DNA of 64,000 nt from a virus (IMGVR_UViG_3300042914_003164:1-64000); one strand, 5' to 3'. Counted from the stretch's first letter, positions 1,901 through 35,456 are shown. Translations and numbers: made by a program. Notes: generated by a model from the letters alone, not told the origin.

Positions 1901-1977
1901 TCTCTGCACTTTGCCATCTTGACAGATGGTTTCCTGCAGGGCTTATTCAACCCTGTTAAACTCTACACTTCAGGTAA

Positions 1978-2448
1978 ATGGTTTCAATCTCTGGCGTCAC
2001 AAGCGATCCCGCAGACCTTACAGTTGTCAGCACGGATGGCTCTCACTTTGGAGCATCAAGCGCATACCTTGTTGACCTGACAAGTGCAACTAAATACAAG
2101 GTAGACGAGTTCGTGAAAGGGACGGACTCTGAACGTCGTGATTTTGCACACTCACACGGAGTTCGGTTGCTGGATATTCTCTCCGGCGAGGAAGCACCTT
2201 TTGTCAGCCAGGCTGTGCTTTACAAGTTTGACGGCGAAAGCTTCTTCGATGAAGATGAAGCGCACCCAGGCTACACTTACGCACTTCCAAGTTTTACTGG
2301 CAGATTCTGGGTGTGTGATTGCTGGATTGTAAACGAGCAAGGCGAGAGGCACCCGGATTACGACGTTGCACCTGTGCCTCTGACAGCTTGCAACCTTGAG
2401 CCTGTAGGTGACAACCCGTGGATCGCAAGTGTGCTGAATCAGGACTGA
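1978..2448 (+). CDS. hypothetical protein
   Basis: 156-aa ORF with structured leader. Confidence 0.65.
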   Translation: MVSISGVTSDPADLTVVSTDGSHFGASSAYLVDLTSATKYKVDEFVKGTDSERRDFAHSHGVRLLDILSGEEAPFVSQAVLYKFDGESFFDEDEAHPGYTYALPSFTGRFWVCDCWIVNEQGERHPDYDVAPVPLTACNLEPVGDNPWIASVLNQD

Positions 2449-2597
2449 TAGCTGTAGCTGAATAGCTCAGACTTTGTAGGTTGCGGTAGGGCTGAGTTTG
2501 TGGGCTCGGCCCGCCTAACCCTGTAGGAAGCCAGCGGACTTTGCGGTTAAGCATTCCTTATGTTATGGGATCTGGGCTACTTTGTAGCGGGATTGTG

Positions 2598-2606
2598 TGC
2601 TATAAT
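2598..2606 (+). promoter_or_regulatory. extended -10 promoter (TG-C-TATAAT)
   Basis: Perfect TGnTATAAT 70 bp upstream of ATG 2676. Confidence 0.6.
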
Positions 2607-2675
2607 TTGGGAGCTGGGGAAGTTGTAGGCTTGCCTGCCCCCAGACTTTACACTCTACACTTTACACTTGCTGCT

Positions 2676-2984
2676 ATGACAAGCGACACCTTCTACGCTC
2701 ATGCTTGCAGGATTGTTGAGAACTTCAACTTCCTCAAGGTTCAAAAGATGATGGCTGCAGTTGATTGGAACTGGGGCGGACCTTACATGAATGGAGAGTT
2801 TGGACCTCCCACTGTTGACGCTATGAAGTCCAATGCAATGCACTTACTACTTCAAGCCAAGACGCTGGACACTAACACTTCGGCTGGTGGCTTCCAAGCC
2901 TATTGGGTGAGACAGGGAGACGTTGCAGGTTACAAGGGCAACGGCTACATCGGACTTCGGTTCATTGGAGCTGAGACTTACTGA
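2676..2984 (+). CDS. hypothetical protein
   Basis: Start moved to ATG 2676 (MTSDTF...) downstream of promoter; 'NFNFLKVQKMMAAVDWNW' phage-type motif. Confidence 0.65.
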   Translation: MTSDTFYAHACRIVENFNFLKVQKMMAAVDWNWGGPYMNGEFGPPTVDAMKSNAMHLLLQAKTLDTNTSAGGFQAYWVRQGDVAGYKGNGYIGLRFIGAETY

Positions 2985-3033
2985 GTTCATAGTCTGTAGT
3001 TCACTATCGACACCAACCCTGCACTTTACAGCA

Positions 3034-3666
3034 ATGAGCGACCTAGTTTACCTCAAAGACCTGCCAGGCTACATCAAGCCGGAACAACCGGCTGCACCTT
3101 GCAAGCCACAGCCCAAGCCTCTCTGTGAGGCACTTGCAACAGCAGAGGTTCCAGTTGAGCCGCTGCTACCTTGCACCAAATGCAAGGGAGATGGATACCT
3201 GTTCAGCGAAGGCTACAGGTACACACGAGATGATGGAACACTGAGAGTTTACGAGTCAGAGTGGAAACCCTGCATGTACTGCGATGGAGTTGGCTGGTTC
3301 CACGCACCAGACCTTGCAAGTTTGGTGAAAGCGGTTAATGGCCGCAAACCCCGTACCCTGCGGTCAAAGAGACCAGATGATACACGCGCCTACTTTGTAT
3401 GGCGTATGGCAAGGTTCCACGGTGGAAAGGATGTCTGCTTGCCGATGGCTGCAAGTTGCGACATTGCAGGTGATCCCTACGAGAACGTACTTGACCAGTT
3501 GGCAACCATCATTGCCAAAGCCTATTTCGGTAGTGGCAACGTTGGAGTTGCAAGATGGCAGCAAGCGATATATGGAAGTCACAGCTTCAAGGATGTACCT
3601 GCTGTCATTGATGGTCCTGTTTACGACAGTGACAAGCCTTTAGAAGAGATGTTGGAGGCTGTCTGA
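3034..3666 (+). CDS. protein with DnaJ-type CxxCxGxG zinc-finger motifs
   Basis: CTKCKGDG and CMYCDGVG motifs; start at ATG 3034. Confidence 0.6.
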   Translation: MSDLVYLKDLPGYIKPEQPAAPCKPQPKPLCEALATAEVPVEPLLPCTKCKGDGYLFSEGYRYTRDDGTLRVYESEWKPCMYCDGVGWFHAPDLASLVKAVNGRKPRTLRSKRPDDTRAYFVWRMARFHGGKDVCLPMAASCDIAGDPYENVLDQLATIIAKAYFGSGNVGVARWQQAIYGSHSFKDVPAVIDGPVYDSDKPLEEMLEAV

Positions 3667-3673
3667 TCTAGGA

Positions 3674-3737
3674 TTGTAGTTTGCAAGAGTACCGGAAACT
3701 TGCGGCACTTTACACTCAGTTTTTTATTGCTATGACT
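3674..3737 (+). repeat. intergenic leader repeat copy 1 (hairpin, loop AGTACCGGAAA)
   Basis: ~63-bp near-identical to 4093-4155. Confidence 0.85.
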
Positions 3738-4085
3738 TTCCGAGTTTACGCCAACAAAGGCTTCCAGATTGTACTGCCAAACGGCTACGAGATAAGCTGC
3801 ATGTTCGGATTTCTAAACTACTGTCAACACCGCAATGATGATAGTTTGGTGCAAGGCTGCATCACTACAAACTGTGGCGAGCTGAAGTCTAAAGACTGCG
3901 AGATTGCAGTTTACGACCCGAATGGTTACAGCGTCGGAGGCTGGCCAGGCTGCTCTGCCATTGAGGGTGTTGCAGGTTGGCAGTCTGTAGATAACTTGTT
4001 GAACGTTATTGATTACGTTCGCAACCTTACGCCGCCCCGCTCAGAAGTTGTTGACACTGAAGACTACTGTGAAGAGCATTACTGA
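3732..4085 (+). CDS. hypothetical protein
   Basis: ATG 3732 sits at the same position in the repeat as ATG 4150; 'KGFQIVLPNGYEISCMFG..NYC' phage-type motif. Confidence 0.7.
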   Translation: MTFRVYANKGFQIVLPNGYEISCMFGFLNYCQHRNDDSLVQGCITTNCGELKSKDCEIAVYDPNGYSVGGWPGCSAIEGVAGWQSVDNLLNVIDYVRNLTPPRSEVVDTEDYCEEHY

Positions 4086-4092
4086 CCAGAGT

Positions 4093-4155
4093 TTGTAGTT
4101 TACAGGAGTACCGGAAACCTGTAACATCCTGCACTCAGTTTTTATTGCTATGACT
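4093..4155 (+). repeat. intergenic leader repeat copy 2
   Basis: See copy 1; compensatory stem changes. Confidence 0.85.
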
Positions 4156-4554
4156 ACGAACACAAAGGCTAAGAGCTTAACACTGAAAATTCCAAGCGGA
4201 TTCTATGCAGTTCCGATCACGGAAGATCAATGGAGGCAGTTCATGGGTTCGGAACTTGAGGATCGTCATTGCAAGATGGAGGCCGTAGGTTATTGGTCGG
4301 TTCCCGTAAAGTACACAGCAATCGCTGTTTCCTACACTTGGAAGAATAACTTTATGGACACGATCACCTTGTATGGTGAACGCACAATGTCCAGCTTGAA
4401 ACGGTGCGGCTACGACATGGAAGGCAGAGTTTTCGTTGACGGAAAGAAGTTCAGAGGTTTTACTTCTTCTCAGTTGTTTGAACTTCCTGATGGTAGATTG
4501 CTTGACGTTGCGGTGATACACGTTTGCGCTAAAGAGCCTGAAGTTACTTTTTGA
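4150..4554 (+). CDS. hypothetical protein
   Basis: 134-aa ORF following repeat. Confidence 0.7.
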   Translation: MTTNTKAKSLTLKIPSGFYAVPITEDQWRQFMGSELEDRHCKMEAVGYWSVPVKYTAIAVSYTWKNNFMDTITLYGERTMSSLKRCGYDMEGRVFVDGKKFRGFTSSQLFELPDGRLLDVAVIHVCAKEPEVTF

Positions 4555-4557
4555 ATT

Positions 4558-4767
4558 ATGGCAGCTTTACCTCAAGTCGAGCAACTCTCTAGCTTCAGAA
4601 AGATACTCTTTGCAGGTCAAAGGGTCACAGTTGAGAGGACGCAGCGCAGTGTTACAGGTTACTGCGTTGTAGGTTGGGAGAGTGGTCTACCTGTTGCAGC
4701 TAGGCCGATTACAGCTCAGAAGATAAAGGCTTTACTTAAAGCTTACCCAAACCACACTTTGATCTGA
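4558..4767 (+). CDS. hypothetical protein
   Basis: Tightly packed in operon. Confidence 0.6.
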   Translation: MAALPQVEQLSSFRKILFAGQRVTVERTQRSVTGYCVVGWESGLPVAARPITAQKIKALLKAYPNHTLI

Positions 4768-4768
4768 C

Positions 4769-5107
4769 ATGACTATCACTATCGAAAAAAAGTTCGAGCC
4801 TTCCGACCGCTACAGGTTTGACTGTGGACTCCCACGCCACTTTGCACAGATTGACACTTGCCAAGATGCAAGTTACTACGGTAACTGGGCAAGTGCTGAA
4901 GCTCTGACTTTGATAAGTTACTGCGAGGGAGACGTGACTACAACAGTCTGCACAACAAAGGAGGAGTTTGCGGCTGAAGTCAACAAGCTCAAGGACTTCT
5001 CTAACCGTATGGATTACACCTTCAAGGGAATAGATCCAGGTTTTCATCACACAGACGAGATCCTGCAACCTTGGAGAGATTGCGGTCTAGCACACCTTAT
5101 TCACTGA
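4769..5107 (+). CDS. conserved hypothetical protein of mobile elements
   Basis: 'DRYRFD...FAQIDT.QDASYYGNW...ISYCEGDV' motif. Confidence 0.65.
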   Translation: MTITIEKKFEPSDRYRFDCGLPRHFAQIDTCQDASYYGNWASAEALTLISYCEGDVTTTVCTTKEEFAAEVNKLKDFSNRMDYTFKGIDPGFHHTDEILQPWRDCGLAHLIH

Positions 5108-5112
5108 ACCCA

Positions 5113-5391
5113 ATGGACAGCACCTTCATGCCTGGAACTACTAATTTGCAGCAGGCTAATCGTAAGTGGTTGCTTGCACAGAACATTAAGGCTGCAGTTG
5201 ACATTCCAGATGGTTGCAGGAGGTTTTACATGCTAAACCCAAGGGAAAAGAGTTTGGAGGTTTGTAGGTCACATGGCGCAGATCATTGCGCCTACGAATG
5301 GGGACCACAGATTGACCCTAGATGGAATCCCAAGCAGATTGAAGCTTACATCTCTGGATACTGTAACATCGCTCTTGACTCCAATGTTTAA
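5113..5391 (+). CDS. hypothetical protein
   Basis: Start at ATG 5113; operon packing. Confidence 0.55.
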   Translation: MDSTFMPGTTNLQQANRKWLLAQNIKAAVDIPDGCRRFYMLNPREKSLEVCRSHGADHCAYEWGPQIDPRWNPKQIEAYISGYCNIALDSNV

Positions 5392-5704
5392 GCTCTACTA
5401 CTTTGTTGATTACAAGACGGATGAAGGCGAGCCGGAACCTTATACGGTTGCCTTTGACATCGTTGAAGGTGATGCCCGACACATTGAAGATTATGTTTAC
5501 GAGGGAAGTTTCTTAACTTTGTTGGATGCACAGGATAGGATGAATAATCGAGGTAGTCGATGGTTCTTTTATCCTAATGCTTGTATTACAGAGGTTGTAG
5601 GTGACAAGGAGGTACTTGTTGGTATCTATCTTCAAAGTGGTGTTAATTACGAGTTATCACCTGAGGAGTACGAAGCTTTGAGGGAGGAAGCTGTATGTTG
5701 TTAG
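5384..5704 (+). CDS. hypothetical protein (acidic)
   Basis: Start at ATG 5384; followed by terminator. Confidence 0.6.
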   Translation: MFKLYYFVDYKTDEGEPEPYTVAFDIVEGDARHIEDYVYEGSFLTLLDAQDRMNNRGSRWFFYPNACITEVVGDKEVLVGIYLQSGVNYELSPEEYEALREEAVCC

Positions 5705-5737
5705 TTTGACTTTGTAGATTAAAGTTTGCACTGTATT

Positions 5738-5766
5738 GGCCGGTGTTAATTCACTGGCCTTTTTTA
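5738..5766 (+). terminator. rho-independent terminator
   Basis: GGCCGGTG-ttaatt-CACTGGCC then T-run. Confidence 0.8.
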
Positions 5767-5819
5767 TTGCCTGTTGTAGGTCGATGTTTGTGTGTTAGAG
5801 TTAGGAGGCAATTGATCGG

Positions 5820-6668
5820 TTGTTGACCGTGCCAGAAGGGAATCAGGAGCTTCAAGGCAGTGACTTTGAAGGTGATGACTTTGAAAATAATGCCGCAGAC
5901 CTTGAAGATTCTATCGCAGATATTGAGTCTTTATTGACTGATGATCTCGGCATTGATGATGGTACTTTAGATGGTATTGATGAAAGTTTGAACCTTAATG
6001 AGTATGGAGAGATTGAAGACGAATTTGTAGTAGACACTAACGATGATAATACTGTAGATGTTAATAGTTCTAATCTTGAAGATCAAACCCCTACATTCCA
6101 AAGCACCAATATCTCACACCCTGCAAACCCAACCCAAAACCCCTCTACCTCTTCACTTGTTAAAACGTGGTCTAAAAGATCGAAACTTGCACCTAATGAG
6201 ACGGATAAAGAATTTGAGATGTTCAAAGTTTACTGTATGTATGGAAGTGGTCGTTCTCACCAATATGTATCCCAGATTACAAACTTTGGACTCAGCACAA
6301 TAAAGATTATAGCACAGCGGAACCAGTGGAGCCGTAGGTCAGGGGACTATGACAGATGGCAGCTTACCCGTAAGATAAAGGAAGCGCAAACTTCCAGGCA
6401 CGAGGAGCACATTAAGAAGCTGGAAGTTTACAGGGAGGAACAGGAAGCACTAGGGAAGCAGCTAACGTTAAACGCTGCACGTATAGCATTCTTAGCAAAC
6501 TCTACACTTGCAAAGATGCTAGACGAGGAGAAGACTCTTGACATGAGGGATGTTCCTGGTATCTTGAATACAGCAGCAAAGCTTGCAGAAGTAGGTAAGA
6601 ACTTGCAAGGTACTGCACTGGGAGTTGATCAGTTGTTAAGTGCTATAGAAGAGTCAGAGGTTGACTGA
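5820..6668 (+). CDS. terminase small subunit-like HTH protein with very acidic N-terminus
   Basis: 'W..R..PNETDKEFEMFKVY..G.GRS ... W.RR..DYD' followed by a coiled coil, a TerS-like pattern. Confidence 0.5.
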   Translation: MLTVPEGNQELQGSDFEGDDFENNAADLEDSIADIESLLTDDLGIDDGTLDGIDESLNLNEYGEIEDEFVVDTNDDNTVDVNSSNLEDQTPTFQSTNISHPANPTQNPSTSSLVKTWSKRSKLAPNETDKEFEMFKVYCMYGSGRSHQYVSQITNFGLSTIKIIAQRNQWSRRSGDYDRWQLTRKIKEAQTSRHEEHIKKLEVYREEQEALGKQLTLNAARIAFLANSTLAKMLDEEKTLDMRDVPGILNTAAKLAEVGKNLQGTALGVDQLLSAIEESEVD

Positions 6669-7056
6669 AGAGGCTGCGCCCACTTCTAACAGCCCGAAGC
6701 CCACACATAGAACCGCTTACGCGGGATAGATTAAATCGGGTTTGTACTGACTGAGGGTTTGCGGGAAGGCACTTCGTTGTTGTAGTTTGCAGGTTGTAAG
6801 GGTTTTTCAGTGGTCAGCCTAACGGCTGTTTTATTTATAGGTTACATCTAGTACATGGATACTTCACACCTCGCAGACTGGACCCGGATTTTCGGTTTTT
6901 GGCTGTTTATTTCCGTACTTACATATATTATTAGGTATAAATGGGGACAAGGCTAGGTAGCTTGCGCCGCAGTGCTTCTACTTTATGATCTCATAACGGA
7001 CACGTTGTATTCATCAAGGCTATGACTGCGATCTCGAAATGTAACAGAAAATAACA

Positions 7057-7094
7057 GGGTAGTTTCTACCCACCCAATCGGGTAGTTTCAACCC
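7057..7094. promoter_or_regulatory. tandem palindromic operator-like sites
   Basis: GGGTAGtttCTACCC (7057-7071) and GGGTAGtttCAACCC (7080-7094), just upstream of wHTH gene. Confidence 0.6.
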
Positions 7095-7113
7095 CCCACC
7101 TCAGAGGCTGCTT

Positions 7114-7599
7114 TTGACACCTTCAATCAAGCCACTTCACACCCTGATCGCCTCAGACATGCCAGGTTCACACCTGAAAATCATGTTCTTACTCGTTGAT
7201 ATGTGCAATGATTGGGGCTTTACAACAGAGTCTTATGGTTCACTATCAGAAGTATTTAACTTAAACAAGGACAACCTACGCAAGAGGGTAAACACACTTA
7301 TCAAACAAGATATGCTGAAGATCGTAAGCTACAACGGCAGGAAAGGTTTGATGGTTAATCCCATATACTGCAACGATAAACCTTTGCATCTTAAAGAATT
7401 TAGAGAAGCGCTCTGGGAGAAAGAGCTAATACTTACACGTTACAAGCCTAGACACTTCTATGGACCTCCATTCATGGAAACCCAGGAGCTAGCATTTGCA
7501 GCAGTCAAGAGATCGTACAATGGATCCAAACACCCCAAAGAAAGAACAAGACGAATTATTTGCAGGTCTTTGGAGGCAGCAAAAACACGTCAGAGTTAA
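7114..7599 (+). CDS. winged-HTH, replication-initiator (RepL)-like protein
   Basis: 'SYGSLSEVFNLNKDNLRKRVNTLIKQDML....LMVNP' wHTH plus MVNP motif. Confidence 0.45.
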   Translation: MTPSIKPLHTLIASDMPGSHLKIMFLLVDMCNDWGFTTESYGSLSEVFNLNKDNLRKRVNTLIKQDMLKIVSYNGRKGLMVNPIYCNDKPLHLKEFREALWEKELILTRYKPRHFYGPPFMETQELAFAAVKRSYNGSKHPKERTRRIICRSLEAAKTRQS

Positions 7600-7780
7600 A
7601 TACTTCAAACTTAAAGAGGACAGTGGAGATATTGCATCTAGGGATCAAGCATTCAGGGAGATGAACAATTTCTTCATTCATGAAGTAGATTACAGTTTCA
7701 GCCCTGAGACTTCAATCGTTGACAGATCACTTCCTAAAGGTTCAATCCTTGATGCCATACGCAAAAGTTGTAAAGATTAG
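7520..7780 (+). CDS. hypothetical protein
   Basis: ATG 7520 after GGAG-containing region; ends at first GCCATTCATG repeat. Confidence 0.55.
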   Translation: MDPNTPKKEQDELFAGLWRQQKHVRVKYFKLKEDSGDIASRDQAFREMNNFFIHEVDYSFSPETSIVDRSLPKGSILDAIRKSCKD

Positions 7781-7921
7781 CCATTCATGCCTGACACTAA
7801 AGGATGCCGCGGCCATTCATGATACACATTCAACCTTGAAAGCTGCATTCATGAAAACGCCATTCATGACATGACACCAGGAGAACGCCATTCATGATAG
7901 GATGCAGATTAGCCATTCATG
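7780..7921 (+). repeat. iteron-like direct repeats GCCATTCATG
   Basis: Exact copies at 7780, 7812, 7859, 7887, 7912; variant at 7845. Confidence 0.85.
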
Positions 7922-7928
7922 ATGACAC

Positions 7929-8152
7929 CTTAGACGTTGCACCTTAAAGATTACAGTTTAGACATTCAACCTTAGACTTTGCACTTTATACGTTACAGCT
8001 TAGAGGCTATACATTAAAGGCTGTACCTTGAACCTTGCACTTTGCACCTTATACATTAAAGCTTGCACCTTATACATTAAAGGCTGCACTTTGTACTTTG
8101 TACTTTATAGGCTAGACTTTATAGGTTAAAGCTTGTAGGTTCAAGTTTATAG
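7929..8152 (+). repeat. phased degenerate heptamer array (32 x NYTNNAS), decaying to ~8650
   Basis: cttagac gttgcac cttaaag attacag tttagac attcaac ... gttcaag tttatag; 224 bp with no indel. Confidence 0.9.
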
Positions 8153-8656
8153 TTCACTATCCCGCACGTTATACTTTGCAGGTTGCGCTTTGCAGTATGT
8201 AGCTCACACTATGTAGCGTCTAGTCTGAGGTTCAGGCTTTACACTTTATGGGCTGCAGGTTGCAGGCTACAGGCTAACCTTAAGGACCAGACTTTATAGT
8301 AAGCAAGTTATACTCCAAGGCCTGCAGATCGCAGGCTGTAAACTATAGTTCACTATCCCGCCAGGTATAACTTAATAGGAGAGAATCAGACTTTATAGGT
8401 TCCTGCCTGCACTGACAGACTAGGTGCAGGCTTCTGTAGGTTTGCTGCCGGTAGTTTGGAGCCTGCCGGCTAACCTTAAAGGCTGGAGAATGCGCGAGCT
8501 TAGGTGATGCCAACCGCTCACACTTTGTAGGTTTGGCGGTGATAAAGCGTAGGCTTGGGTTTGCGACACTTTGCTAATTATCGTAGATTCTGGCCGCAGC
8601 AGCTGAGACTTTATAGGTTAACTGTCTGCAGAATCTACAATTGATCAAACCTTGAA

Positions 8657-8728
8657 TGTTACGGTTCCGTAACAATTGGGCGGATTTGGGCTGATAGGTT
8701 GCCAGTTGGCCGACTTTGCGCTTAAGAT
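8657..8728 (+). promoter_or_regulatory. palindrome plus sigma70-like promoter
   Basis: TGTTACGG-tt-CCGTAACA (8657-8674); TTGCCA-N18-TAAGAT (8699-8728). Confidence 0.45.
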
Positions 8729-8780
8729 ACTTTCAAGCGATCGGACCCAAACCTTTAAACCGACCGCCCCCCCTAGGATC

Positions 8781-9419
8781 ATGACAAGCGCCAACCAAAA
8801 GCCCGCACCTAACCAAAAGGGCGGACCCGTCAAGATTGGACAAGCAGATGTTGAACTGCTGGCGTCCGGTGATTTTGCCGCCGCGCTTGCTGCCGCAGTG
8901 TGGGAGCCTCCTGCCCGTGACAAGGCCAGCAAGGGCAGCGGAGACGGCAAGCGCGCTGCGATGCCGATCCTATGGCCAGAGGCCATCAGGACCGCTGCTA
9001 ACGCCCTACAGCCCCCCATGGAACTGCCAGACCAATTCCCGAGCGGTAAGGCCAAGATGCCCGGACAATTGGCGTCGTTCCCCAGCAAGGAAGCGATCAT
9101 AAATGGTTGCCTTGATCGCCCAATTCCGGCCAAGTTGGAGAAACGAACAGACGTGCAACTAGCGCTATTGCTTGACGTTGCACATGGTAAGTACGGGGCC
9201 TTCCGTTTTCCTGCCATGTCTGAGGGTTTCAGACTTCCGCTTGCAAACTTGCTGGAGATCCTGAAGCGCCACCCCAGAACATATAAAGAGAATGTAGCGA
9301 TGCAAAAGCTGCACAACTCCGGCGCAACTTGCCTTATGGCTAAGATCGCAAAAGTTACCGGGCGGATTGTTGCCATGGATCCCGACTTCCAACTTTATCT
9401 GATAGACACTGAATCCTGA
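8781..9419 (+). CDS. hypothetical protein, stand-alone unit between heptamer arrays
   Basis: AGGA-TC-ATG at 8781; own promoter and terminator. Confidence 0.65.
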   Translation: MTSANQKPAPNQKGGPVKIGQADVELLASGDFAAALAAAVWEPPARDKASKGSGDGKRAAMPILWPEAIRTAANALQPPMELPDQFPSGKAKMPGQLASFPSKEAIINGCLDRPIPAKLEKRTDVQLALLLDVAHGKYGAFRFPAMSEGFRLPLANLLEILKRHPRTYKENVAMQKLHNSGATCLMAKIAKVTGRIVAMDPDFQLYLIDTES

Positions 9420-9504
9420 ATCTATACTTTGCCCTTTGCAAGTTGCCTATGGTTTAAACTAGTGGTTTCGATAGCTTAATGGTCTGTCCAAGTAAAGAGG
9501 TTTC

Positions 9505-9534
9505 AAGGCTAGGCTTTATCGCCTGGCCTTTTTT
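9505..9534 (+). terminator. rho-independent terminator
   Basis: AAGGCTAGGC-tttatc-GCCTGGCCTT then T-run. Confidence 0.8.
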
Positions 9535-9539
9535 GTGTC

Positions 9540-9616
9540 TTTATACTTTATACTTTACAGGCTACACTTTACAGGTAATAAGCTACACCTGGGGGCCTAT
9601 ACTTTGCAGGTTATAT
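9540..9616 (+). repeat. second phased heptamer array
   Basis: tttatac tttatac tttacag gctacac tttacag (gtaataa) gctacac (ctggggg) cctatac tttgcag (gttatat). Confidence 0.8.
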
Positions 9617-9817
9617 GTTATGGGGGGTGGGGGAGATTGTGAGGTGTAGTTACTCACCCCCCACTCCTGAAATTTTTTTTCAATACCAGCCTCAAAGCAC
9701 TTTACAAATCATACACTTACCACTCCCCCTGAAATTTTTTTTCATTCCCCATCCAGAACACCTTACAACTTATTTACTTACAGCTCCCATAATTTTACTC
9801 CCTATCCCAAGCCGACA

Positions 9818-10027
9818 CTAATCAGAGATTCGCTTCCAGTTCCTTACGTTTAAGGTGTCAAGCGGAATGAACAGTCCCCATTCGACATAGGAATGACGAA
9901 ATGTACCACCAGATGGAAGATGAATGGAACAGGCAAGCCTTTGCGGACCAAGTATCTGTTCCCATCGCCGCAACTCCCACTGCTCAGGCGTGACATCGGC
10001 AGGTTTTGCAAGGTTGTCTCTTGGCAT
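9818..10027 (-). CDS. hypothetical protein
   Basis: Last gene of - strand block. Confidence 0.5.
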   Translation of the reverse strand: MPRDNLAKPADVTPEQWELRRWEQILGPQRLACSIHLPSGGTFRHSYVEWGLFIPLDTLNVRNWKRISD

Positions 10028-10047
10028 ACTGACTCAACCTATCAAGC

Positions 10048-10524
10048 TCAAAAGCCGCGCACAGTCACAGGTGGCGACTTTGCAGCAAAAGCAATAATAG
10101 CTTCAATGAACTCACTCCATTCTTCAGTTGTAAATTCCATCTCACCCATCTGCTGCCCGCTTTCACAGAGGCCGTAACCATCAAACTTGATTGGTCTGGT
10201 ATCATCACTCCACCAAGGATACCTAATGGAGGAACCCCACGAAAGCTTGCCCTGGAAAAACGGCATATTACACATAATGAGATACCACTTGTAGTCCTGC
10301 TCGTCTTTGATCAGCTCGCGAGTCGTTTTATTATTTATGGCACTACACACCTTAAGAGCGTAAAGCGCAAAGCATTCCGAAATCTCAGAATCGTATGTCG
10401 TGAAGTCGAAAACATGATCAGAAAGGAACTCCAAGCGGGAGTATTCCTCATCCTCAGACTCACGATGTTCGCGGAAAAGCCTGTATCCAGCCTCAAGGGC
10501 TGACAGATACCTCTCTTTTGTCAT
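10048..10524 (-). CDS. hypothetical protein
   Basis: Coupled ORF; 'FDFTTYDSE' motif. Confidence 0.65.
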   Translation of the reverse strand: MTKERYLSALEAGYRLFREHRESEDEEYSRLEFLSDHVFDFTTYDSEISECFALYALKVCSAINNKTTRELIKDEQDYKWYLIMCNMPFFQGKLSWGSSIRYPWWSDDTRPIKFDGYGLCESGQQMGEMEFTTEEWSEFIEAIIAFAAKSPPVTVRGF

Positions 10525-33614: not shown

Positions 33615-33710
33615 CAAGCCTCCTATATTAAGGTAGCTTTCTCGGAGTCCTTAGCCCTAGCGATGCTGGGGCTTTGTATTTTATTGCTATCTTTGATCCC
33701 GAGGGTTTAC

Positions 33711-34028
33711 ATGAGAAGCCTGTCAGATGAAATTGTTTACAGGATTTTGACGGAGACGTGCAACAACTCTGAAATGGCAAGGAGGGTTGGCACTACAAGG
33801 CAAACGGTTCAGCAGATAAGGACTGGAAAAATCTATTCAAGTCTTTTTCCAGAAATACCCAGAAATACAGGCACTGGTAACATGAGTTGCTATAAGTGTT
33901 ATCACAGAAGGAAAAATGTTTCGGAAGGGGATCCGAATCCATGCTCCTTTGATTTTCCAGAGCCACTTATAGTTGGAGTTTTTTATGCCAGGGAGTGCAA
34001 TCTTTTTCAGTCCTCTTCTGCTGGCTAG
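33711..34028 (+). CDS. HTH plus Cys-cluster protein
   Basis: NSEMARRVGTTRQTVQQIRTG HTH; C..C...C...C. Confidence 0.6.
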   Translation: MRSLSDEIVYRILTETCNNSEMARRVGTTRQTVQQIRTGKIYSSLFPEIPRNTGTGNMSCYKCYHRRKNVSEGDPNPCSFDFPEPLIVGVFYARECNLFQSSSAG

Positions 34029-34052: not shown

Positions 34053-35456
34053 GTGCCGGGAAGAACGAGGGCGAACGCTTACATAGACAGGGCCGCAGTG
34101 AGAGGTCTTGGCCTACTTTCCGATCCAACACTGCTGCAGAAGCTAAAGCGGAGGTCGAATACCACATTCGATGTAGATGCGGCAGAAGCTCGCATGGTTA
34201 ATAACCTACTTCCCTATCAGAAAGATTTTGTATGTGACTTTGATCATAAGTATGTAGGTTTCTGTGGGGGCTATGGCTCAGGTAAGAGCTATTCCCTTGT
34301 TGTAAAACAATTACTTTTATGTTTCCGGTCTCAGGGTTTTACACATCTCTTTCTTGAGCCGACCATTCCACTGATTGATGACGTAGCGCTTCCGACTTGG
34401 AATCTTGTACTTGAGAAGTACGGGATTCCCCACTCGTTCAGGGTGTCTCCGCGTCCGGTCTTCACTCTACATCTTCCCGGCGGGGAAACCCCTGTGCTCT
34501 TGCGCTCGATGGAGAACTTTGAGCGCCTGATTGGTGTGAACGCCGCATCTATTGCATCAGACGAGACAGATACTACAAGGGCGGAAATTGCCGAAAAGGC
34601 GATGATCAAACTGCAGGGTCGTGTTCGTGTTGGCAACTGCCCTCAAATTGTAGCTGCATCTACGCCAGAAGGATATGGCTGGATGTACTCGTTTTTTGAA
34701 GAACAAAAAGCTGACAACAAAAAGCTTTACAGGGGCAAGTCTGAGGACAACCCATACCTAGATCCAGGATTCGTGGAGGATCTCAAAACGAAGTATCATC
34801 CGCAGCTGATTAAGGCGTACCTGAATGGAGAGTTTGTCAATCTTGAGTCGGCAACTGTGTTTTATGAGTTCAACCGCGAACTCCATACGACTGGTGTTTT
34901 TCTTCCAGAAAAGGGCGAAAGAATTGTATTTGGAGTTGACTTCAACGTTGGTCAGTGCCACGCTGTTTACGGAGTTGTAAGGCCGGGGCAAAAGGGTCAG
35001 CAGCTCCATTGCTTTGCGGAATCGAAAGTCGCGGACACTTTTGCTCTGGTCGCACATTTGCAAAAGACATACCCATTCCATCTGTCAAGAGGGAAAATCA
35101 CCTGCTACCCAGATGCCAGTGGATCCCACGATTCAACATCCTCTACCCAGAGTGATCATGAAATTCTCAGATCCGCTGGTATCCAGGTGGTGACTGAGCG
35201 CAGGAATCCGCCCATCGCGGAAACACTTGCACATGCCAATGTTCACATGCACCGTGGACTGGTTTTGATCAACCCGACGACATGCCAGAGCACCATAAGC
35301 GCGACCGAGCGATGGTCTTACGATTCTAAAACGCTCAAGCCCGCAAAGGGTGGTGCTACTGATTACTCACACCCAGGAGATGCTCTTAGGTATCTGATTT
35401 GGCAAGTATTCCTACGGGCTGGTGCAAGAGCTGGTCACGGTGGTCGCTGGCGTTGA
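34053..35456 (+). CDS. terL: terminase large subunit
   Basis: Walker A GGYGSGKS, Walker B ASDE, STPEG, DNPYL, nuclease GVDFN and HPGDALRY. Confidence 0.92.
   Translation: MPGRTRANAYIDRAAVRGLGLLSDPTLLQKLKRRSNTTFDVDAAEARMVNNLLPYQKDFVCDFDHKYVGFCGGYGSGKSYSLVVKQLLLCFRSQGFTHLFLEPTIPLIDDVALPTWNLVLEKYGIPHSFRVSPRPVFTLHLPGGETPVLLRSMENFERLIGVNAASIASDETDTTRAEIAEKAMIKLQGRVRVGNCPQIVAASTPEGYGWMYSFFEEQKADNKKLYRGKSEDNPYLDPGFVEDLKTKYHPQLIKAYLNGEFVNLESATVFYEFNRELHTTGVFLPEKGERIVFGVDFNVGQCHAVYGVVRPGQKGQQLHCFAESKVADTFALVAHLQKTYPFHLSRGKITCYPDASGSHDSTSSTQSDHEILRSAGIQVVTERRNPPIAETLAHANVHMHRGLVLINPTTCQSTISATERWSYDSKTLKPAKGGATDYSHPGDALRYLIWQVFLRAGARAGHGGRWR

Follow-up and report, generated by a model that had tools for sequence, protein, structure and literature searches.

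A polar array of 32 phased, sequence-diverse heptamers is the largest part of a non-coding hub shared by a phage and its relatives

The DNA analyzed here, referred to as the window, was a stretch of 64,000 bp comprising the first 64 kb of one 109,690-bp virus contig, which was rated complete by CheckV and on which no end repeats were detected. Positions are counted from the first nucleotide of this contig. The early part of the window contained a group of elements in a conserved order, namely a TerS-like gene, a winged-helix gene, CCATTCA sites, a heptamer array, a TTCACTATC box, and a conserved ORF. A conserved non-coding hub of ~1.1 kb had the array as its largest component, and the hub and its surroundings consisted of the following features.

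5820-6668, plus strand: TerS-like gene (phrog_6299 terminase small subunit, E 3.8e-13), the first gene of the module
7114-7599, plus strand: gene of a winged-helix DNA-binding protein of 161 aa, annotated at first as Rep-like (phrog_428, E 1.4e-5)
7520-7780, plus strand: putative ORF of 86 aa between the winged-helix gene and the iterons, with no Pfam or PHROG match
7781-7923, plus strand: six (G)CCATTCATG sites at 7781, 7813, 7845, 7860, 7888, and 7913, running straight into the array
7929-8152, plus strand: heptamer lattice of 32 phased units, N-Y-T-R-N-A-S
8150-8165, plus strand: conserved box TAG-TTCACTATCCCGC, copy 1, terminating the phased run
8168-8272, plus strand: degenerate continuation of the array in register +1, with runs at 8168 and 8252
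8346-8361, plus strand: conserved box TAG-TTCACTATCCCGC, copy 2
8114 (inside the array), 8388, and 8606, plus strand: three copies of a 16-nt motif, AGACTTTATAGGTT.., also present in the relatives L098 and L254
8273 and 8469, plus strand: promoter-like GCTAnnnT boxes of the sequence GGCTAACCTTAA, two copies in the hub
8781-9419, plus strand: conserved ORF with a G+C content of 55.7%, in all cases the first to follow the hub
9505-9530, plus strand: hairpin resembling an intrinsic terminator, closing the plus-strand gene block
9540-9609, plus strand: second small array of 5 + 2 units, just past the terminator-like hairpin

The TTCACTATC box occurred seven times on the plus strand of the genome and not once on the minus strand. 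A copy of GCTAGACT at 8111 fell within the array. No terminator was found between the winged-helix gene and the array, and a scan of the hub for sigma-70 promoters and terminators gave no excess over shuffled sequences. The putative ORF at 7520-7780 had no equivalent at the same place in the relatives. A single frameshifted gene formed from 7114-7599 and 7496-7780 was considered and dropped, since P0005, which was the sole close homologue, stops after 143 aa.

On the plus strand, positions 7929-8152 parsed into 32 consecutive heptamers without a gap, all of which fitted N-Y-T-N-N-A-S, and unit 33 broke the pattern. The first-pass annotation had described 32 phased heptamers of about 23 types here, and our count of 32 units and 23 distinct sequences confirmed it. 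The consensus of the array was tighter, N-Y-T-R-N-A-S, with a purine at position 4 in 30 of the 32 units; the period and the constraint noted earlier thus held, but five of the seven positions, not four, were constrained. Positions 3 (T) and 6 (A) were invariant, position 2 was T or C, and position 7 switched between C and G by transversion. The remaining positions, 1 and 5, were saturated, with all four bases in nearly equal use. The entropies of positions 1 to 7 were 1.96, 0.54, 0, 1.23, 1.95, 0, and 0.97 bits, and there were zero indels over the 224 bp. With a G+C content of 35.7%, the array was the lowest part of the region in this respect. Phasing stopped at 8153, where the conserved 13-nt box TTCACTATCCCGC cut the register; past 8152, short phased runs appeared in other registers at 8168, 8252, and 8475, and single units continued to ~8615. 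The decay of the register to ~8650 proposed earlier was only roughly right.

The N-Y-T-N-N-A-S pattern had a per-site frequency of 0.018 in the whole genome, where the next-longest runs were of 5 units at 9540 and 4 units at 5704, and no comparable run was present on the minus strand. The array was polar, as had been suggested, with longer runs on the plus strand only. In 2000 shuffles of the region, the longest run never exceeded 3 units. The Fourier analysis at period 7 that the first-pass annotation had called for gave a power of 17 in the array region; the median over the genome was 0.71, and the 99.9th percentile was 12.8. All windows of the genome above this percentile fell in the array region, and the period-7 signal was unique within the 109,690-bp phage genome. 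Shuffling within units yielded two invariant columns in none of 20,000 trials. The mean Hamming distance between units was 2.4-3.3 at every lag, and adjacent units were no closer than distant ones, which gave no sign of recent slippage or local homogenization in the copy of the window. The array is not a neutral microsatellite, in line with the earlier view that it was no product of slippage, and the lattice is under selection.

The same site was occupied by an array on the same strand in L001/L270, L018, L024, L098, L103, L254, L266, L267, L269, and L271, about ten distinct relatives whose proteins were 13-68% identical to those of the window. The annotation had proposed looking for the array in related phages, and its persistence at the syntenic site runs counter to the outcome that was to speak against it. 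These hubs were recovered by searches based on the TerS-like protein, the box 14-mer, and profiles of the winged-helix protein and the downstream ORF; the box 14-mer recovered hubs of relatives that were syntenic. Hubs were also recovered in L257 (grouped with L018) and L256 (grouped with L024). Two alignments, A1 and A4 (the latter of ten homologues of the 8781-9419 ORF), were too divergent to serve as seeds for locus searches. In the relatives, the hub started with the TerS-like gene, the winged-helix gene, and a few heptamers with a CACTATC-type box, and continued with C(C)ATTCA sites, the heptamer array, a further box, a promoter-like GCTACAAT..CAAGCGGG, and the homologue of the 8781-9419 ORF. 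This order was seen in every relative with enough sequence. The CCATTCA core was present in 9-12 copies, on one strand only, in the hub of every relative, and the sites were 14 bp apart in L001 and 13-14 bp apart in some relatives. The array units were entirely different in sequence between relatives and still obeyed the Y-T-R-N-A-S rule, with 9-15 strict units and more by the relaxed rule. The relatives also carried homogeneous runs, for example of five identical units. L001 and L270 were identical across 720 bp save for a 14-bp indel of two units in a run of identical heptamers (L001:7953-7966), which was either natural copy-number variation or an assembly difference; it indicates that slippage does operate and that the pattern is nonetheless retained. 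In the relatives, the hubs were internal to the contigs. The cultured cyanophages P-SS2 and S-CBS2, which share the TerS family, had neither the array nor the CCATTCA cluster.

Several relatives showed local variations of the hub. In L254 (4700-5100), an ORF resembling an HNH endonuclease was inserted within the hub, at the junction of the upstream box and the iterons, which implies that this junction tolerates a 0.5-kb insertion. The interval between the array and the last box contained 5-9 copies of an AT-rich repeat of ~20 bp in L266 (1520-1680), L269 (225-480), and L271 (145-445), forming a fourth repeat family of the hub in these relatives. The box of L001 resembled the arm-site consensus of lambda Int, but the candidate was dropped since the phage lacks an integrase; no integrase family scored above the cut-off in the whole genome.

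Heptamers were not confined to the hub. For runs of at least 2 units, ~6 per strand were expected, and the minus strand contained 6, which is the chance level. On the plus strand, 15 of the 21 runs of at least 2 units under the stricter rule lay within 1955-9596, and two more were located at 107-109 kb. The same scatter on one strand, through the genes upstream of the hub, was found in seven relatives, and all units, both in the window and in the relatives, had the coding strand of their flanking genes as their own. Five of the ten runs outside the hub were intergenic, compared with 20% expected (p 0.035), a modest enrichment. Three of the mini-arrays were placed as follows.

2647-2667, plus strand: mini-array of 3 units, ending 8 nt 5' of an ATG and downstream of a TGnTATAAT-like box
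5711-5731, plus strand: mini-array of 3 units directly before a hairpin and T-run
6779-6792, plus strand: mini-array between the stop codon of the TerS-like gene and a terminator-like hairpin at 6815-6828

The leader orthologous to 2647-2667 retained 3-4 units in the relatives. It belonged to a recurrent cassette, orthologous in the window (~2560-2670), L001, and L098, in which heptamers, a CACTATC box, heptamers, a sigma-70-like promoter, a hairpin, and 3-4 heptamers were followed a few bases on by an ATG. Additionally, the hub iteron GCCATTCAT was located 12-20 nt 5' of the start codons of three small early genes (102,453, 103,242, and 103,743). The heptamer runs beside promoters and leaders across the early region point to the control of expression. 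A phage sigma factor was encoded at ~75.6-76.6 kb.

Copies of the companion motifs were also seen in other places. In this genome, GCCATTCAT occurred at 102,453, 103,242, 103,722, and 103,743, two of the copies in near-identical leaders. In two unrelated AT-rich viral contigs (L170:90-200 and L148:680-760), five GCCATTCAT copies directly preceded and overlapped the start of a small gene, which looks like that of a ribbon-helix-helix protein, and the 9-mer may serve other aquatic phages as an operator. On the reverse strand of L142 (5220-5290), four copies of CCATTCAT were spaced at exactly 21 bp inside an ORF that resembles a PD-(D/E)XK exonuclease, where they encoded a repeated xIH tripeptide. 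A search with the two-site pattern GCCATTCA returned mostly unrelated coding repeats and unrelated phages.

The TerS-like gene at 5820, which the first-pass annotation had recognized, was borne out, though weakly, by its phrog_6299 match. The product was related to the TerS-like proteins of the cyanosiphoviruses P-SS2 and S-CBS2, where the homologues directly precede terL, and its membership of the family is genuine as judged by homology. It was 53-68% identical in every relative with upstream sequence, and in these comparisons it was the only well-conserved protein among the neighbors, parallel to the invariant CCATTCA core. The array began 1.26 kb downstream of its stop codon, an order kept in all relatives. 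The N-terminus (window 5820-6180) formed a very acidic, D/E-rich extension of ~120 aa outside the match to the TerS of P-SS2 and S-CBS2, which could be a DNA-mimic or partner-binding tail. In this phage, terL was located at 34,053, 28 kb from the hub, with a different small HTH ORF directly upstream. This ORF of 121 aa (33,663-34,028) had weak HTH matches (phrog_686 and KorA) and may be the functional small terminase, in which case the phrog_6299 homologue at 5820 may be free for another role.

The product of the gene at 7114 had been called Rep-like. Our analysis supported a winged-helix protein, but its similarity to initiators was only below threshold, and no Pfam match exceeded the threshold. 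The structural model had a pLDDT of 80-95 across residues 8-103. The top Foldseek rows were all MarR-type regulators, and in VIA-align, MarR, ORC, the DnaD N-terminal domain, and a plasmid initiator were tied at Z 6.6-8; the predicted fold is a generic winged helix, for which the fold searches did not separate a regulator from an initiator. The protein was only 13-16% identical to the product of the winged-helix gene at the same place in the relatives, and as a query against the viral contigs it gave zero matches. While the motifs stayed the same, a protein with this degree of identity is too divergent to be their common reader. The winged-helix gene of one relative had a sub-threshold RepL match (E 0.0028). 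For the ORF at 8781-9419, ten homologues of 21-95% identity were aligned; the closest were 95% and 77% identical, and identity between the window and the other relatives was 21-31%. This ORF had no match in Pfam, PHROG, the phage collection, or the Atlas, and its model (pLDDT 59) gave nothing in Foldseek at E <= 0.001.

For an array with this observed lattice, constraint, polarity, conservation, and dispersal, we infer protein binding, a binding geometry, and a regulatory purpose. That a protein docks on this lattice is very probable, whereas its role is less clear. Our tentative reading, which we hold as somewhat short of probable, is that the array is a polar protein-binding lattice with a 7-bp register and the main site of a control hub for the early region. 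Each 7-bp unit would present five readable positions, Y-T-R-.-A-S, and leave two positions free. Successive sites would be 240 degrees apart around the helix, so that a protein bound to one unit could polymerize cooperatively along the array as a helical coat. The high-specificity CCATTCA sites and the TTCACTATC boxes would be the likely nucleation points, and the array would be the expanded central site of the hub. Since the three hub motifs occurred singly or in runs of 2-5 by promoters, leaders, and spacers, we read the hub as the main site of a regulator that controls expression in the early region, or as a sink by which this regulator is titrated. The neighboring TerS-like protein may also assemble there.

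A known system with a similar geometry is that of omega, a ParB-type RHH repressor of plasmid pSM19035, whose dimers bind 7-10 unspaced WATCACW heptads, thereby repressing promoters and wrapping the DNA in a left-handed helical coat (PMC2441792). The omega sites and the array were alike in having contiguous, unspaced 7-bp units in which about five core positions are read. In both, sites are found close to promoters at more than one locus, and the geometry permits a helical protein coat. They differed in that the array had 32 or more units in a single orientation, with a much more degenerate unit, and in that its neighbors were the TerS-like protein, a winged helix, and the conserved ORF, with neither an RHH nor a ParA gene turning up in the phage. 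No RHH_1 match was obtained in the genome at E <= 0.001, and neither AAA_31 nor ParB_N was matched in the whole genome. The resemblance lies in a possible mode of action, not in membership of the family.

Several points count against the protein-binding lattice. The adjacent winged-helix protein differed almost completely between the window and its relatives, whereas the motifs were constant, and the intergenic enrichment of the mini-arrays was modest. The restriction of the units to the coding strand is explained equally well by a role at the RNA level, and the TerS-like neighbor and the look of a Rep gene with iterons and AT-rich DNA would fit packaging or replication equally. To our knowledge, an operator with 32 or more sites would be far beyond any described. 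None of the roles offered by the first-pass annotation, packaging, replication, or an injection stop, could be shown. The phage had a separate initiator-helicase pair, and these roles left the heptamers beside early promoters and leaders unexplained.

Among the alternatives, a pac region fared best, although we regard it as rather unlikely. Here the TerS-like protein would bind the CCATTCA sites and the terminase would assemble and cut on the adjoining lattice, which would set the direction of headful packaging; the 13-14 bp spacing of the CCATTCA sites in some relatives would be as if the DNA were wrapped on a TerS ring. The genuine family of the TerS-like protein, the position of its homologues 5' of terL in P-SS2 and S-CBS2, its conservation alongside the CCATTCA core in all relatives, and the strict polarity of all the repeats were consistent with this reading. 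A parallel with phage T7, which the first-pass annotation had drawn, also bears on it. Polar heptamer motifs in a non-coding region are common to both phages, CCTAAAG-like units fit the consensus of the array, and the CCATTCA sites of L001 with their 14-bp spacing resembled the layout of the 13-bp-spaced T7 heptamers beside the terminal repeat. The short-repeat arrays beside the T7 terminal repeat are the SRL and SRR of Dunn and Studier. The T7 heptamers were correctly described as CCTAAAG units beside the terminal repeat, but they are near-identical and are separated by spacers of 5-7 bp (period ~13 bp) beside a mapped genome end, whereas the units of the array were diverse and head to tail; the parallel is loose. 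A literature search on CCTAAAG found only irrelevant papers. Against packaging stood the distance of terL with its own small HTH ORF, the location of the TerS-like gene in an early-looking block, the scattered heptamers and CCATTCAT sites near promoters and start codons, which packaging leaves unexplained, the internal position of the hubs in the contigs of relatives, and P-SS2 and S-CBS2, which possess the TerS yet have no array or site cluster.

A second, plasmid-type origin, with the winged-helix protein as the initiator, CCATTCA as the iterons, and the array of 36% G+C as the unwinding or loading region, was given a low probability. Origins built of a Rep gene, iterons, and AT-rich DNA include lambda O/ori, P1 oriR, and the Rep origins of PICIs. 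The hub resembled them in the DNA-binding gene beside direct repeats and a repeated stretch that was the lowest in G+C in the region, a classic origin layout to which the AT-rich ~20-bp repeats are added in some relatives, and the winged-helix proteins gave weak matches to phrog_428, RepL, HTH_36, and Phage_rep_O. However, the units of the hub were 7 bp and not 17-22 bp, every Rep match was below the family cut-off, and the small, generic winged helix, with MarR regulators as its best rows, was not demonstrably an initiator. The putative initiator was only 13-16% identical between genomes in which the iteron was invariant. The phage also had a canonical initiator (phrog_4707, E 2.6e-22), unrelated to the winged-helix protein and immediately followed by a DnaB-like helicase, at 79,355-81,855 (L260:15355-17855), 70 kb from the hub. 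The initiator gene contained tandem repeats (24-bp x2 and 11-bp x2), which could be an origin in the style of lambda O. Folding of both single strands and of the RNA gave nothing unusual (RNA z-score -0.27, DNA z-score about -1.5), and the single strands showed neither a lack nor an excess of structure, which does not favor an origin. A literature search on heptamer repeats with phage origins and on cyanophage iterons found nothing relevant.

We also consider it improbable that the element acts at the RNA level, where the transcript would carry period-7 sites for a phage or host RNA-binding protein, the mini-arrays would tune translation or termination, and the large array would act as a sponge or form a long leader of the 8781-9419 ORF. 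The HutP protein of B. subtilis reads NAG triplets with 4-nt spacers and provides a precedent for a 7-nt period. This explanation agreed with the coding-strand location of all units in the window and relatives, with three-unit runs that immediately preceded start codons or came shortly before terminator hairpins, and with the continuity between the winged-helix gene and the array, which no terminator separates. It also agreed with heptanucleotide repeats that are frequent in Cyanobacteria, often just 5' of start codons, and whose reader is not established (PMC4679880; bioRxiv 10.1101/2022.06.06.494920); they include TAACTGA in Cyanobacteria and Beggiatoaceae (PMC4679880) and TTTTGAA and GACYAAT in Nostoc (bioRxiv 10.1101/2022.06.06.494920), and for those upstream of start codons in cyanobacteria and Beggiatoaceae, binding of the S1, Csp, or CsrA-like type was proposed in these studies. 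On the other hand, many units were upstream of promoter-like boxes and would be transcribed only via read-through, and the constraint on five of seven positions was more than the reading of triplets needs. There was no fold signal, and the sole Rfam match in 6500-10500 at E <= 1 was to an lncRNA and due to chance. Searches for HutP, cold-shock, and RRM domains in the whole genome found none above the cut-off.

A functionless, tolerated heptanucleotide satellite, the phage counterpart of the cyanobacterial and other repeats and kept by slippage, is very unlikely. Heptamers are the commonest long simple repeats in prokaryotes according to the account of Mrazek 2007 given in PMC4679880. Tandem GTTRYAG units were present across numerous bacterial phyla, with Moorena, Dolichospermum, and Nostocales among the carriers. 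STRR elements are further heptanucleotide direct repeats of cyanobacteria. The phage array and the cyanobacterial repeats shared the 7-nt period, the intergenic location, often before start codons, and indels in 7-nt steps; the two-unit indel as the sole difference between L001 and L270 and the locally homogenized runs of the relatives would fit slippage as well. However, 120 cellular GTTRYAG arrays had a median of 5 units, a maximum of 21, and no more than 5 unit types, so that they were short and near-homogeneous, whereas the phage array was long and reached maximal diversity at two of its positions. It also kept a fixed, syntenic place in the phage genomes, where two further conserved motifs accompany it. 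This far greater diversity, combined with the stricter patterning, argues for selection on the lattice itself. In the window, positions 1 and 5 were saturated while positions 3 and 6 never changed and position 7 alternated by transversion, without local homogenization. The site, strand, and pattern outlasted the divergence of the neighboring proteins to 13-31% identity, which also argues against an unselected satellite.

The repeat-rich region of T5 has been proposed to stop or pause DNA entry. A similar injection-stop signal here, marking where an early segment that enters first would end on its inner side, is extremely improbable. The hub is a non-coding patchwork of several repeat families, and with it a plus-strand block of small genes ends shortly before the convergence at ~9.5 kb, 8-9% of the genome length from the contig start. 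Against this, the contig start is not an established physical end, end repeats were not detected, the plus-strand block runs on across the contig ends, and the hub is far inside the contigs of relatives.

The reading of the array as a protein-binding lattice can be extended. The heptamers may constitute a degenerate "heptad code" that one protein reads in a 7-unit register, and this reader could be a host factor or the TerS-like protein repurposed. Short runs (2-5 units) would determine how much individual early promoters or leaders yield, and the hub of 30-60 units would be a high-capacity sink or assembly site that times the early program and couples it to packaging. Since the same type of unit forms arrays in cyanobacterial genomes, the phage may borrow the reader of the heptamer repeats of its cyanobacterial host. 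We consider this extension speculative and, as a whole, unlikely.

Many cyanobacteria carry contiguous heptamer repeats, and the ends of several phages are marked by heptamer motifs; for most of these, no reader protein or function is known to be established. The clade described here is an unusually clean case, in which constraint can be assigned position by position and the array has a fixed genomic address and two companion motifs. Only three conserved neighboring proteins are candidates, and the turnover of copy number and units can be read from metagenomes. Once the reader is named, it should become clear which process, expression, packaging, or replication, is controlled by lattices of this kind. 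It would also open a way into the early regulation of freshwater cyanophages, an essentially unexplored subject. If the phage does use a host reader, the decades-old puzzle of the function of cyanobacterial heptamer repeats would become directly testable.
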